A stretch of 64,000 nucleotides of DNA from an uncultured Phycisphaeraceae bacterium (GTDB lineage Bacteria > Planctomycetota > Phycisphaerae > Phycisphaerales > UBA1924), in NCBI GenBank assembly GCA_964490785.1, contig CAZBDZ010000009.1, positions 2,812 to 66,811 on the forward strand, in the 5' to 3' direction. Both the position numbers and the translations under genes were made by a program. Below the pieces are notes generated by a model, which had not been told where the DNA came from, made no database searches, and saw only the letters and a list, made by a program, of their open reading frames with translations. This document shows, in pieces, positions 3,793-21,939 of the stretch. Each line of letters starts with the position of its first letter. The stretch's first letter is position 1.

Positions 3793-4033
3793 TACGAATC
3801 CCACAAGACTTCCGGGCGGGGGCATCCGCCTCTTCGCCCGCCACGGCGGGTCTTCGACTCGAAGACTCGCTCAAAAGCGGCTTCTCTGACGCCCGGAAAC
3901 CATGTGGGATCCGTATAACCCGAGCGATTGGTCGAATCCCCGTGAGCATGTGCGGAATTCGGTTTCGATGGCGCATTGGACTTGAAGGGCCGCCCGATCA
4001 ACGCGGTTTGGCGTCCCTGAGAGGAGACCCGCC

Positions 4034-5532: not shown

Positions 5533-5635
5533 CATACGGATTATCCTTCATTCTCGCGCTGGGCGATCACGGGATTCGCTGCGCAAAGCCTTCGCTCATC
5601 CCGAGCGTGCGTGCGAATGAGCATTGATCCGTATT
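5533..5635. repeat. Interspersed repeat of about 100 bp, family C, copy 1
   Basis: Core ttcattctcgcgctgggcgatcacgggattcgctgcg...cgctcatcccgagcgtgcgtgcga recurs inverted at 8101-8228. Ends carry inverted atacggat / atccgtat. Confidence 0.7.
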
Positions 5636-8100: not shown

Positions 8101-8228
8101 GAATCCGCATGGCTTGCAATCGTATGGAATGAATCGTTGGTCCATCGCACGCACGCTCGGAATGAGCGGAGGGTCGCCGCAGCGAATCCCGTGATCGCCC
8201 AGCGCGATAATGAAAGCCGATCCGCATG
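8101..8228. repeat. Interspersed repeat family C, copy 2 (inverted relative to 5533-5635)
   Basis: tcgcacgcacgctcggaatgagcg...cgcagcgaatcccgtgatcgcccagcgcgataatgaaag is the reverse complement of the copy 1 core, with a variable 9-nt centre. Confidence 0.7.
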
Positions 8229-11621: not shown

Positions 11622-13145
11622 TTAGGCGCTGGCCTGAGCAATCTGCGCGACGCGCTCGCCGAGCAGCGAAACCGGCACGCCGGCGGCGGGCTTGGTTCGG
11701 CGGTCGAGATCTTGAATGGTGCAGCGGGCCTCGTCGCCTTTGGATGAGGCGGACTCGATGATCGCGACCGTGCGGGCATTCGCCTGGACCGCCTCCTGCA
11801 CGAGTTTGCCCACGTTCTTCGTCGCCTTGTACGAACGGCGGGCGTGGAGAGGCGGGACGGCGTAGCGATCGACAGACCAGGGTTTGCACTCGCCTTGCTT
11901 GTACTTCTCCGATTCCTCGCCGCGGCGGAGACGGGCGACCGTGGGCACGATGAGTTCCTCGCAGCCTGGGTTGGGCGAGGCGATGACGAAGACATCGGGA
12001 CGATAGGGCATGGGGCGTGTGAGGGCTTCGAGCATGTCGCGGCCTTCGGGAATGAGTTTGCGGTCTTCGAGGAGGTTGCCGAGGACGGCGTCGCCCATGC
12101 CGAAGCCGCAGGCGGGGGTGGGCGGGCCGCCGAAGAGTTCGATGAGGTTGTCGTAGCGTCCGCCGCCGGCGACGGCACGTTCGCCCTCGGCGATGACCTC
12201 GAAGACGGTGCCGGTGTAGTAGGCGAGGCCGCGGACGATGTCGCTATTGAACTGAAACCACTCGAGAATGCCGGCGTCGCGCAAAGAACCCTTTAGCCAC
12301 TCCATAAGTGAATCTGCCGTGTCGGATAGTTCATTGATTCTGCCCTGCGATCTATTATCAGGAACGGGAGCATCCCTGATCGTGCGAGTTGCGAAGTAGT
12401 CCGCTTGATTGGCAGTGAATCCCAGATCGAGTGCTTGTTGTCTTAGCTCGTCGGGCGGTGATTTATCGCGCTGGTCAAGTAATGCGAACGCATCATCAAT
12501 CCTCTCCAACGGCACGCCAACAATATCCATCAATGCGGCCTGAAGCCTCTTGCGATTCGAAAACCAGCCTCGACATAGCTCATTCCCGATGCCACACATC
12601 CTCAGTGAGTCAACGAGCACTCCCATCACTTCCACATCTGCTTCATGCTCAGCTATTCCCCCAATAACATCGCAGTTCCACTGCCAAAACTCCCTCAACC
12701 TCCCCCGCTGCGGGCGTTCGGCCCGGAAGAAGTTGCTGACGCAGAACCACTTGGTGGGTTGGGGGAGTTGCTTCGCCCGCGCGGCGTACATGCGGGCGAG
12801 GGTGGGGGTGAACTCGGGGCGCAAACCAAAGGGGGGGCTGCGGGGGTCGAGCGGCGCTTCGGGCAACCCCGTCGCTGGCGCTCCGGGTTCCATGGCGCGC
12901 CGCGCATTTTCTGCTTTCCCACTGAACACGCCGAACATCTCGTTGAGGATGCCTTCGCCGGACTTGACCTTGTAGAGGTCGGCGGCTTCGAAGGTTGGGC
13001 CGTCGATCTCGTCGAACCCGTGGCGGAGGGCGGCGCGGCGCCAGGCGTCGGTGATGTACCGGCGGACGAGCATCTCGCGCGGATAAAAGTCGCGCGTGCC
13101 CGAGGGAGGGGCGATCTTCACGGGTTTCCGCGGGGCATCGGGCAT
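11622..13145 (-). CDS. hisS: Histidine--tRNA ligase
   Basis: GTRDFYPREM, motif 2 FRAERPQRGRLREFWQWNCDVIG, motif 3 RGLAYYTGTVFE. ATG 13145 is preferred over GTG 13178, which lies inside a REP palindrome. Confidence 0.9.
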   Translation of the reverse strand: MPDAPRKPVKIAPPSGTRDFYPREMLVRRYITDAWRRAALRHGFDEIDGPTFEAADLYKVKSGEGILNEMFGVFSGKAENARRAMEPGAPATGLPEAPLDPRSPPFGLRPEFTPTLARMYAARAKQLPQPTKWFCVSNFFRAERPQRGRLREFWQWNCDVIGGIAEHEADVEVMGVLVDSLRMCGIGNELCRGWFSNRKRLQAALMDIVGVPLERIDDAFALLDQRDKSPPDELRQQALDLGFTANQADYFATRTIRDAPVPDNRSQGRINELSDTADSLMEWLKGSLRDAGILEWFQFNSDIVRGLAYYTGTVFEVIAEGERAVAGGGRYDNLIELFGGPPTPACGFGMGDAVLGNLLEDRKLIPEGRDMLEALTRPMPYRPDVFVIASPNPGCEELIVPTVARLRRGEESEKYKQGECKPWSVDRYAVPPLHARRSYKATKNVGKLVQEAVQANARTVAIIESASSKGDEARCTIQDLDRRTKPAAGVPVSLLGERVAQIAQASA

Positions 13146-13174
13146 GGGGGGTAGGGTAGCAGCGCCGTGCTCTA

Positions 13175-13860
13175 CCACGGGACTCGCGGACTCGTCCCGA
13201 GCGTGGGGGAGAGGTGACGATCATCCCTGACGCTCGGGACGAGTCCGCGAGTCCCGTGGTGGCGCGGGCGTCACTGCTGCGAGGGCTTCCGGATGCGCCA
13301 GACTGCAGCCCCCTCTTTCTCCGAATGTTCGAGGATGTAGCGGAAGACGTTGAGTTGGTGCTCGCGATCCCGGATCGGCTTCGCCTCACGTCGCGCGGCC
13401 CAGACCTGACCTGGGATCGCGTCGCGGATGGCGTGCGAAGAATGTCGCTTCAGGCGGGCGACCGAGTTCTCGATATCGTTCGGGCTCAACTTCGCGAGGA
13501 GGTGAACGTGCGTCGCGCTCACGGCGGCACAGACGACGAGGAGTTCGATCTGTTTCGCTTTCGCAAGGAGAGCATCGAGTGTCCGTTGGCGCAACGCGGG
13601 CGCGAGGAGAACCGGATCCTTGTGCATGATGCGCTTCATGTACCGATGAAGACCCGCATGCTCGCCCTTCGGGGGCGGGCGTTTGTAATCGCCCGAAGAG
13701 TGGATCCGGTGGAAGCGATCGCGGAACCCGCGGGGATCGCCGTGGAGCCATGCGCCGTAGGTGCTCCACATGATGTGGAACCAGCGAGGGGGCATGGGGA
13801 CACTCTCCCTCGGGGCTCGCCCGCGGAAACCACGGGACTCGAAGACTCGTCCCGAGCGTG
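13175..13860. mobile_element. REPtron: RAYT gene flanked by cognate REP sequences
   Basis: The 31-nt unit ccacgggactcgcggactcgtcccgagcgtg (13175-13205) and its inverted copy (13230-13259) lie 12 nt past the RAYT stop. A third copy, ccacgggactcgaagactcgtcccgagcgtg (13830-13860), lies 35 nt upstream of its start. Confidence 0.8.
13271..13795 (-). CDS. REP-associated tyrosine transposase (RAYT, IS200/IS605-like Y1 HUH transposase)
   Basis: N-terminal WFHIMWSTYGAWLHGDPRGF, HUH motif THVHLL, C-terminal Tyr region NVFRYILEH. About 174 aa, typical for the family. Confidence 0.8.
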   Translation of the reverse strand: MPPRWFHIMWSTYGAWLHGDPRGFRDRFHRIHSSGDYKRPPPKGEHAGLHRYMKRIMHKDPVLLAPALRQRTLDALLAKAKQIELLVVCAAVSATHVHLLAKLSPNDIENSVARLKRHSSHAIRDAIPGQVWAARREAKPIRDREHQLNVFRYILEHSEKEGAAVWRIRKPSQQ

Positions 13861-14250: not shown

Positions 14251-14472
14251 GGCAAGTCTCCAGACCGTCGGGGCGCCTGGGCCACCGACAGGATCACTCT
14301 ACCAGAGATTCGCGGTTGGGCAGGGATTCCCCGGAATCTCGGGACGCCGAGGCTCAGCCCGCGAAGCCTCGGTTTCGACGGGCACGGGATCCAAGGCTTC
14401 GTCTCGGCTTCCTCAGCCTCGGCGTCCAAGGTCCGGGGGCGTGGTGAGGTCGGCCTCCTTTGAACCTCGGCT

Positions 14473-20028: not shown

Positions 20029-21939
20029 TCAGGGCCTCTCCGGGGACGGTGATGATATCGGCCCCGCCGGCCCCGCGGATACCTCGCCTATCACAAGGTC
20101 CACCCATTCGCCCTTCGAGTAGTTGAAGCCCGTCACCCGGCGCAGGACAGCCATCGGCCGACCAAGGGCCGCCTCGACCGCCTCCACGCGGGCCGTCGGA
20201 ACGACGAGCAGCCCGCCGGGGTTCTCCCCAGACCACGGCGCGACGTTCGCAAGTCGAAGCCGCCGACAACCCGCGTTCGTGAGGAACGTCAGGCTGTCTT
20301 CGTGATACCCGACGGCGGCGACCGGACGTACCTCGGCGGGGTCAATCGAGCGAACCGCCGCCACGACGCGCGAACTGACCCACAGTGCGTTCAGACGCGG
20401 GAGCACAATCCCGAAGACCGACGCCGACGCCACCACCGCCGCCGCCAATCCGAGCGTCTGCCCAAGGACCAGTCGCCCACGGAACACCGCGCGCGCGGCG
20501 GAGATCACCAGCCCCGCTCCCACGCCCGCCGAGGCGCCCATCGCCATCGTCAGCGGCCCGGGCGCAACCAGACCACCCAGCCGCGAAAGCACCGGCGGCA
20601 CGCATCCGCCCAGCACCAGTCCGATCGCCGCCCAAAGGCCCACGCCGACCTTGGCCATCCGGCCGCGACCGCTGAACGGGCCGCCCACGCCGACGACGGC
20701 CCGGGCGCTCAGGAGCGCGAGCGCGGGGTACAGCGGCAGCGTGTAATGCGGCAACTTCGTCAGAATCAACTCAAACACGATCCACGAGGGAATCAGCCAT
20801 GCCAACAGGAACACCTCCGCGGGCCGATCATCCCTGAAGCGACGCCACCAGGCTTTCGCCCTTGAATCGGGATCGCGGGCGCTGCGCCACGCCGAGGAAA
20901 GCCCGAAGGCGGTCAGCATGCTCCCAGGCCAGAACAGCGCCGGCAGAAGAACGAGGTGGTATCCCGGCGGCCCCCAATGTCCCTCCGCGGCGGACACGCT
21001 CCGGCCGAGCGTTTCATCGCGGAGGATCGTCAGGTACCGACTCCACCCCACTTCGCCCGCCACGAGAACAACCCAGGGCATCACAACGGTCGCCACCAGA
21101 ACAAGCCCGAGAACCGGGCGAAGCGAGAGGAGCCAGCGCCATCGTCCCGTCGCGGCGGCGAGCGCGAGCGCGGTCAGGGCCACGATCATCGGCGTGATCG
21201 GCCCCTTCGACATGACGCCGAGGCCGACGAGCAACCAGAGGACAAGGGGTGCCACGGCCAGGGCAGCGAAGGCTCTGCGGAGCGCAGTCGGCCGCGGCGA
21301 GCAGCCCAGTGCGCACGCCACGGCCGACTCCGCTCGAAGACTCGCTTCGCCGGCCGTGGCACCCGGGAGATCCCGGTTCCAGCACCGCCAGAGCGCCCAC
21401 ATGGCCGCCGTCGTCGCCGTGAGAAGCAGTTGGTCCGCGCGCGCCTGTCGCGCATCCCACATCACCATGACCGAGCACCCCAGCATCGCCCCGGCCAGCC
21501 AGGCGACGACCGGCTCGCGCGGGTACATCGACCGCCCAACCCGCCAGGTGATGAGCGTCGAGGCCAGGGCGCACAGCAGCGAGGGCAACCGGAAAGGCCA
21601 GATGTCGCCGGTGAGAAGACCGATGGAGTTGCGCTCGTTCTTCGCGTCCGCCGATCGGAGCATCGCCGCGCTCGCCGCCTGAAGCCAGTAGATCACGGGC
21701 GGCTTGTTCAGCCGAGGAGTCTCTCCCACTCTCGGCACAAGCCACCCCTCGCGCGTCCCCGATTCCAGCATCTGCCGGCTCGCCTGGGCGAAGCGCGACT
21801 CGTCGCGGTCCACCGGCGGCAGGTCGCGCGCCCCGGGCCACAGGGCGAGCACGCACACGACGACAAGCAACACTCCGCCCCGCCAGCCGCAAAGCCACCG
21901 CCGGCGGGAGTCGGATGGCAACTCGGTCGGCATCGGCAT
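20029..21939 (-). CDS. ArnT/PMT-family (GT83/GT39-like) membrane glycosyltransferase
   Basis: N-terminal DRDESRFAQASRQMLESG...RLNKPPVIYWLQA and more than 10 TM segments. Confidence 0.8.
   Translation of the reverse strand: MPMPTELPSDSRRRWLCGWRGGVLLVVVCVLALWPGARDLPPVDRDESRFAQASRQMLESGTREGWLVPRVGETPRLNKPPVIYWLQAASAAMLRSADAKNERNSIGLLTGDIWPFRLPSLLCALASTLITWRVGRSMYPREPVVAWLAGAMLGCSVMVMWDARQARADQLLLTATTAAMWALWRCWNRDLPGATAGEASLRAESAVACALGCSPRPTALRRAFAALAVAPLVLWLLVGLGVMSKGPITPMIVALTALALAAATGRWRWLLSLRPVLGLVLVATVVMPWVVLVAGEVGWSRYLTILRDETLGRSVSAAEGHWGPPGYHLVLLPALFWPGSMLTAFGLSSAWRSARDPDSRAKAWWRRFRDDRPAEVFLLAWLIPSWIVFELILTKLPHYTLPLYPALALLSARAVVGVGGPFSGRGRMAKVGVGLWAAIGLVLGGCVPPVLSRLGGLVAPGPLTMAMGASAGVGAGLVISAARAVFRGRLVLGQTLGLAAAVVASASVFGIVLPRLNALWVSSRVVAAVRSIDPAEVRPVAAVGYHEDSLTFLTNAGCRRLRLANVAPWSGENPGGLLVVPTARVEAVEAALGRPMAVLRRVTGFNYSKGEWVDLVIGEVSAGPAGPISSPSPERP

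Follow-up and report, generated by a model that had tools for sequence, protein, structure and literature searches.

A short gene for a Y1 HUH transposase-like protein lies next to hisS in a draft planctomycetal genome, with copies of a small inverted repeat on either side of it. Does this locus constitute a REPtron, in which the repeats are the hairpins on which the enzyme acts, and which nucleotides of those hairpins would the enzyme read? We addressed these questions within a window of 64,000 nucleotides (the whole stretch of DNA analysed, bases 2812-66811 of contig C9) and across the draft genome to which it belongs, an assembly of 3.63 Mb in 128 contigs with 66.6% GC, for which named relatives indicate a place in Phycisphaerales, Planctomycetota.

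The Y1 gene and its flanking units

The gene occupies positions 13271-13795 on the minus strand and encodes a RAYT-like protein of 174 aa belonging to a Planctomycetota clade. Its translation contains the motifs THVHLL and FRYILEH, which bears out the HUH motif and C-terminal tyrosine reported in the initial annotation; the HUH histidines are H96 and H98, and the catalytic tyrosine is Y153. The base composition of the gene carries no foreign signature, no tnpB adjoins it, and a scan of the locus for promoters and terminators detected none.

The repeat is a 31-nt unit, ACCACGGGACTCGCGGACTCGTCCCGAGCGT, that occurs exactly at 13174-13204 (plus strand) and 13230-13260 (minus strand), and with two substitutions at 13829-13859 (plus strand). 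Three units in the real sequence compare with none in shuffled sequence. The inverted pair and the third, two-substitution copy had been described before and are real, but the earlier coordinates were shifted by 1 nt. All three belong to a hairpin family that we call family D. The proximal downstream unit (13230-13260) is a minimal form with the loop TCG-CGGA-CTC, lying just 3' of the gene, with 10 nt between its end and stop codon 13271. The distal downstream unit (13174-13204) is also minimal, is identical to the proximal one, and overlaps GTG 13178, an alternative start of hisS. The unit 5' of the gene has the loop TCG-AAGA-CTC and lies 33 nt away from ATG 13795. When the gene is read forward, the minus strand carries this upstream unit and the plus strand the proximal unit on the other side of the gene, so that the two are inverted, and the 3' tails of the flanking units are directed away from the gene. 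Inverted cognate hairpin units thus stand on both sides of a Y1 HUH gene, which upholds the REPtron arrangement as originally proposed.

The two downstream units, with a 13-nt spacer, form a REPIN-like doublet at 13169-13265, located between the stop codon of the Y1 gene and the start of hisS. Its arms make up a 42-nt inverted repeat that is 90% complementary and folds as a single strand with -56.3 kcal/mol (z = -10.5); the only Rfam matches at the locus were spurious ones of microRNA precursors to this long hairpin. An isolated unit is a weak hairpin thermodynamically, no better than shuffles (z of -0.2 to -1.4). Since single units score so close to shuffled sequence, thermodynamics alone does not show the hairpin; covariation, presented below, does.

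hisS itself (11622-13145, minus strand) is a conserved neighbour outside the element. The suggestion that it starts at ATG 13145 and not at the GTG agrees with a congeneric genome, G005, in which the orthologous gene begins at the matching ATG. The start there reads MPDPSPKKPVKI and has an in-frame TGA just 5', which supports ATG 13145 as the probable start, and the annotation of hisS ought to be changed to this position. The central part of hisS (12250-12700) falls to ~52% GC between flanks of 65-70%. G005 also carries an orthologue of the Y1 protein (72% identity) that has the same flanking units and likewise adjoins the hisS start. Compared with that locus (contig C31, L014), the cassette at 13169-13860 is flipped in its orientation to hisS, with breakpoints within the inverted repeat units. 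Its far-side neighbours also differ, being a STAS gene and gyrA here and a nuoG-like gene in G005. An inverted cassette with a changed far-side neighbour in two congeners points to recombination at the repeats.

The hairpin family within and between genomes

Searching for the 31-mer elsewhere in the genome, a check called for by the initial annotation, showed that the exact form is nearly confined to the locus; only seven matches were found when up to eight mismatches were allowed. This count is misleading because the length of the hairpin tip varies. A pattern based on the frame of the hairpin (GGGAYTCG, 0-26 nt, CTCRTCCCGAGCGTG) returned about 106 copies, and we therefore rejected the idea of a tiny repeat family. 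The 31-mer does not define a small family of its own; it is the minimal-loop form of this larger one. Exact-word counts badly underestimate repeat families whose hairpin tips differ in length.

The frame of family D runs ACCAC, stem CGGGAY, TCG, variable tip, CTC, stem RTCCCG and finally AGCGTG. A GT[AG]G foot (GTAG or GTGG) is absent from this consensus, ACCAC-stem...stem-AGCGTG. Among the 106 copies, 83 have a 39-nt core (48 of type 1 and 35 of type 2) and nine a 28-nt core. The tip CTCGAAGACTCG is present in about four to five copies and the minimal CGGA-type tip in five, two of which are the downstream doublet; the upstream unit, with its AAGA tip, equals the minimal form in length, the frame scan having fused it into one longer match. 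Most dispersed copies have a longer tip than the units adjoining the gene. Of all family-D copies, 55 lie on the plus and 51 on the minus strand; they are singletons except at this locus, and a rough GC3 test places about 98 of the 106 outside any plausible coding frame. Two dispersed members lie in the window and were absent from the earlier reading: a type-2 copy with a 39-nt core at 5568-5608 (plus strand) and a type-1 copy, also with a 39-nt core, at 8153-8193 (minus strand). The latter is typical of the 48 type-1 copies, which lie within an element of ~105 nt with the terminal inverted repeats ATACGGATC...GATCCGTAT. Family D was not found beside any other Y1 gene in the genome.

Full-length type-1 elements all differ from one another (mean identity about 75%, maximum 93%), and there is consequently no sign of recent amplification. 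Given this absence of identical dispersed copies, family D may now be nearly static. The 39-nt core alone is well kept, being identical in 23 dispersed copies. Within the genome the stems show compensatory changes, with GGGAC/GTCCC in some copies and GGGAT/ATCCC in others, and CCACGGG set against CCCGGGG/CCCCGG.

The association of hairpins with the gene extends to other genomes. A member of the clade occurs in 16 of 41 related genomes, with a patchy distribution and two to three paralogues in some. Both 250-nt flanks shared an inverted sequence at 61 of the 74 usable homologous loci, as against 15 for control windows displaced by 700 nt. Hairpins with a perfect stem and a loop of TCG, 2-18 nt and CTC were present in the flanks of 25 of 80 loci (17 on both sides), compared with two controls. 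A set of 24 such units from ~20 genomes keeps TCG, CTC and the tail constant and shows changes on both sides at six of the eight stem pairs (66 cells). Part of this signal is built in, since the units were picked by a pattern requiring TCG...CTC and at least five pairs, and the fixed TCG and CTC follow from that selection; what is informative in the set is the enrichment in the flanks and the diversity of the stems. We also considered whether the TCG...CTC loop is a general trait of long perfect hairpins in this genome and rejected the idea, as it is found in only 22 of about 8,500.

Within the genus, across five related and partly incomplete genomes, the gene and family D are present or absent together. 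The family is present in G000 and G005, both of which have an orthologue, and in G004; G001, G002 and G003, which have no orthologue, show no copy matching the strict family-D pattern. This strict pattern finds 18 copies in G005 and 24 in G004, the latter genome being 68% complete.

The tip CTCGAAGACTCG links family D to other repeats. This 12-mer occurs in the window at 3858-3869, 13838-13849 and 21333-21344, where 0.02 occurrences are expected, and 181 times in the genome (178 classifiable), as the hairpin tip of four families. Besides family D these are family A, which is of GTGGCA type and has 78 clear copies as well as hybrid forms, family B (31 copies) and family C (33 copies). It often sits within a longer tip, CGCTCGAAGACTCGCTC; the four families are otherwise unrelated, and family A also occurs without the 12-mer, as CCACGGCCGACTGCG-CTGGCCGTGGCA. 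The 12-mers at 3858 and 21333, formerly taken for degenerate relatives of the 31-mer, actually belong to members of the B-type and A-type families, respectively. The A-type (GTGGCA) copy at 21333, a repeat spanning ~21320-21360, lies in frame within a 636-aa membrane-protein ORF (20029-21939, minus strand). In-frame intragenic REPs have been described, as have GTAG repeats in the superphylum to which Planctomycetes belong (Di Nocera 2013, PMC3733652). The same ORF resembles an ArnT/PMT-type glycosyltransferase, to which the repeat adds roughly ...GATAGEASLRAESAVACALG... residues. The window contains 18 occurrences of the word GTGGCAYG, where 6.3 are expected. As origins of the tip common to the four families, we considered nesting, recombination and a shared binding site.

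A separate, degenerate hairpin doublet, GACGCCGAGGCT...AGCCTCGGCGTC, lies at 14342-14428 between the STAS-domain gene and gyrA and has about nine copies. Hairpins of this type flank paralogues of the clade in G001, G009 and G023; as no such paralogue was found in the present assembly, the doublet may represent an orphan repeat family.

The protein and the other Y1 genes of the genome

The AlphaFold model of the 174-aa protein (pLDDT 90.3) retrieved Y1 transposases (ISDra2, IS608, IS200) at all of ranks 1-28 in a Foldseek search of the PDB, with E-values down to 8e-5 and TM scores up to 0.66; E. coli TnpA-REP bound to its REP hairpin (4ER8) came third. A profile search against the PDB returned the same Y1 families. 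In an alignment of 25 homologues H96, H98 and Y153 are invariant, as are W16, G19, G23, F24, R25, H29, H32, G129, W132 and W166. A conserved insertion of ~35 aa (residues about 13-46), specific to the clade, separates strand beta1 from the first helix and appears in the model as a loop of lower confidence. The tyrosine motif reads Y153-I-L-E-H-S, and the position four residues after the tyrosine is H or Q across the clade. The classical RAYT motif Y---NP, which defines class 2 in Table 1 of Quentin et al. 2018 (PMC6006769), is absent from the protein and from the alignment of 25 homologues.

Scores against family models are low. The protein reaches 22.9 bits against Pfam Y1_Tnp (PF01797; cut-off 23), or 23.4 bits in a six-frame search of the genome, 28.5 bits against NCBIfam REP_Tyr_transpos (NF047646; cut-off 80) and 22.8 bits against the IS200 NCBIfam model (cut-off 55). 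By sequence it is a distant relative of both the RAYT and the IS200 models. With scores at or below the Pfam and NCBIfam cut-offs, a tyrosine motif other than Y---NP and repeats that have no GTAG foot, it is not the textbook RAYT that it was first taken to be. Homologues number about 400, essentially all from Planctomycetota and several of them labelled RayT by JGI, and the catalytic residues are invariant across them, the ORF here being intact. Among GTDB species representatives, 268 loci were found in Phycisphaerae, Planctomycetia and Gemmataceae, together with a few contigs that are probably mis-binned.

Nor is this the only Y1 gene in the genome, as the description of a single-copy RAYT would have it: about 16 Y1-like genes are present. 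In a scan for repeated flanks, 14 of the 16 genes, among them the present one, had neighbouring sequence of which further copies exist in the genome; the repeat next to the present gene scored only 3, and the gene on contig C20 had none. A second RAYT or another mechanism had been predicted on the grounds that the GTGGCA-type hairpins differ in sequence from the 31-mer, and these counts confirm that further RAYTs exist. The repeat families at the other Y1 genes have roughly 5-170 copies, and GTGGCA-type repeats flank Y1 genes on contigs C63, C13, C42, C1, C18, C26 and C17, which supports the view that RAYTs other than the present one serve these families. About nine of the genes are classical RayT-like (YIHxNPV...W.WSS). 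Five short ones (C1:87101, C73:231, C3:62455, C63:18359 and C10:10034) have the motif Y---Q--HH and resemble subclass 1.2, for which Quentin et al. 2018 (PMC6006769) reported no REPs; each is flanked by a dispersed hairpin family of 11-106 copies. Two genes belong to the clade studied here, the present one and a paralogue with 36% identity that lies on contig C123 between uvrB and uvrA. The flanks of this paralogue contain B-type hairpins, a repeat different from family D but with the same TCG-CGGA-CTC loop. One gene per repeat family thus holds here, the Y1 gene being single copy and its paralogue having its own repeat.

Two further observations concern the classical RayT-like sequences. An in-frame TGA makes the gene at C17:32137-32313 a probable pseudogene, with its repeat family still around it. 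The sole valS of the assembly (C23:15221-19234, outside the window) contains an in-frame, stop-free classical RayT domain of ~235 aa, with the motifs DHVHLL and YMIHNPVKAGL, bounded by its own repeats, which are translated as LPPLGGTDLQS. The same in-frame insert is found in the valS of G001, G003, G004, G005 and G026, the last from another family (loci L112-L117); it was not found in G002, G006, G025, G027 or G028.

Nature of the locus and its predicted mechanism

How does this locus compare with known systems? Like the REPtrons of class 2 (E. coli YafM, 4ER8, and the RAYTs of Pseudomonas and Stenotrophomonas; PMC6006769), it has a single-copy Y1 HUH gene between inverted hairpin repeats, an inverted-unit, REPIN-like doublet adjoining the gene, about 100 copies of the repeat dispersed mostly between genes, and several gene-repeat pairs in one genome. 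It departs from them in the protein, which has Y-I-L-E-H in place of Y---NP, falls below the cut-off of the NCBIfam RAYT model (28.5 against 80 bits) and carries the insertion after strand beta1, and in the repeats, where a fixed TCG...CTC frame in the loop and, on the 3' side, a C[GT]T[GC] tail take the place of the GT[AG]G foot. Class 3 TnpA-Y1 proteins are known from Planctomycetes, Acidobacteria and Legionella and are associated with atypical hairpins; their tyrosine motif is YV[VI][AENY]EQ and their repeats have a CnGA foot and the form GAGCCGCGACCGT...GGGAGCGG (Quentin et al. 2018, PMC6006769). The present protein is similar to them in length (174 aa, where their median is 178 aa, and a long core of ~155 aa), in its xHVH and W[A] motifs and in its occurrence in Planctomycetes, as well as in the REPtron-like arrangement with atypical, weak hairpins that have no GTAG. 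We nevertheless rejected membership of class 3 on a comparison with its published motifs and repeats: the class-3 tyrosine motif is absent, and class-3 repeats were not found in the flanks of the gene or of its 80 homologous loci. With the TnpA proteins of the IS200/IS605 family (IS608, ISDra2, IS200) it shares the fold and the catalytic motifs, and these provide its best structural and profile matches; here, in contrast, the gene is not multicopy, the hairpins are inverted and there is no tnpB.

The locus is probably a REPtron, that is, a single-copy HUH/Y1 single-stranded DNA endonuclease-ligase bracketed by inverted family-D hairpins which it would recognise and of which ~106 copies are spread over the genome. 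Both the layout of the locus and the way in which enzyme and hairpin vary together fit this model. The protein branch and the repeat type lie outside the published classifications with which we compared them; the REPtron itself is real and fairly ordinary.

Three other readings have to be set against it. An autonomous insertion sequence of the IS200/IS605 type, with the flanking hairpins as its left and right ends, would explain why the Foldseek and PDB profile matches to IS200, IS608 and ISDra2 equal or beat that to TnpA-REP, and why the residue four positions after the tyrosine is of the IS200 type (H or Q) and not N. It is nonetheless highly improbable, because the genome holds one copy, whose only paralogue is 36% identical and has different flanking repeats, because the flanking hairpins are inverted when they should share one orientation, because no tnpB lies alongside, and because the hairpin occurs about 100 times without the gene. 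An unlikely but more serious alternative is that the protein is a domesticated HUH nuclease acting on hairpins for the host, either processing or resolving them at replication forks or bringing about local rearrangements. Roles in editing single-stranded DNA have also been raised by Quentin et al. 2018 (PMC6006769). The gene adjoins hisS in two congeners with its cassette inverted and its far neighbour different, consistent with recombination at the repeats, and dispersed family-D copies that are never identical give little evidence of current copying. Yet the patchy distribution (16 of 41 genomes) and the paralogues, each with its own repeat, have the look of an element rather than of a host function, and the stems shift between genomes along with the protein, as would be expected of a selfishly evolving enzyme-substrate pair.

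The same divergence of the type-1 elements, in which only the 39-nt core is well kept, would also suit a relic, in which family D was amplified long ago and an intact gene no longer moves anything; the minimal tip beside the gene differs from those of most dispersed copies, in keeping with this. We regard such a relic as improbable, given an intact ORF with catalytic residues invariant across about 400 homologues, two downstream units identical to each other, and 23 dispersed copies with identical 39-nt cores.

If the locus is a REPtron, its working may be sketched by analogy with E. coli TnpA-REP and with the TnpA proteins of IS608 and ISDra2. The Y1 protein would bind the folded family-D hairpin on single-stranded DNA, for example on the lagging-strand template. 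Tyr153 would then cut at a fixed site beside the hairpin, with a metal held by H96 and H98 and probably by H157, and rejoining of the ends would lead to excision or copying of repeat units. Because the TCG...CTC frame and the 3' C[GT]T[GC] tail are fixed and the stems change completely between genomes, the loop and the tail are, we infer, what the enzyme reads, and the conserved insertion (W16...H32) is a candidate for the predicted contact to them.

A bolder proposal, which we offer tentatively and consider doubtful, is that the Planctomycetota clade is a separate Y1 lineage, neither IS200-type nor a Y---NP RAYT, that became a REPtron independently and reads the loop and 3' tail through its insertion. 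The shared tip CGCTCGAAGACTCGCTC would then reflect module transfer or nesting, with one enzyme serving several families.

To our knowledge, nearly all work on REP/RAYT systems has dealt with Proteobacteria and Cyanobacteria. A full-text literature search for REP/RAYT together with Planctomycetota or Phycisphaerae gave no relevant paper among the top-ranked matches. The locus described here provides a clean predicted enzyme-substrate pair from Planctomycetota. Its combination of free stems and a fixed loop frame across dozens of genomes yields a testable prediction of the nucleotides that are read. Finally, with ~16 Y1 genes in 3.6 Mb, most of them with their own repeats, this genome is a natural system in which to study how such enzymes discriminate between their own hairpins and those of others.
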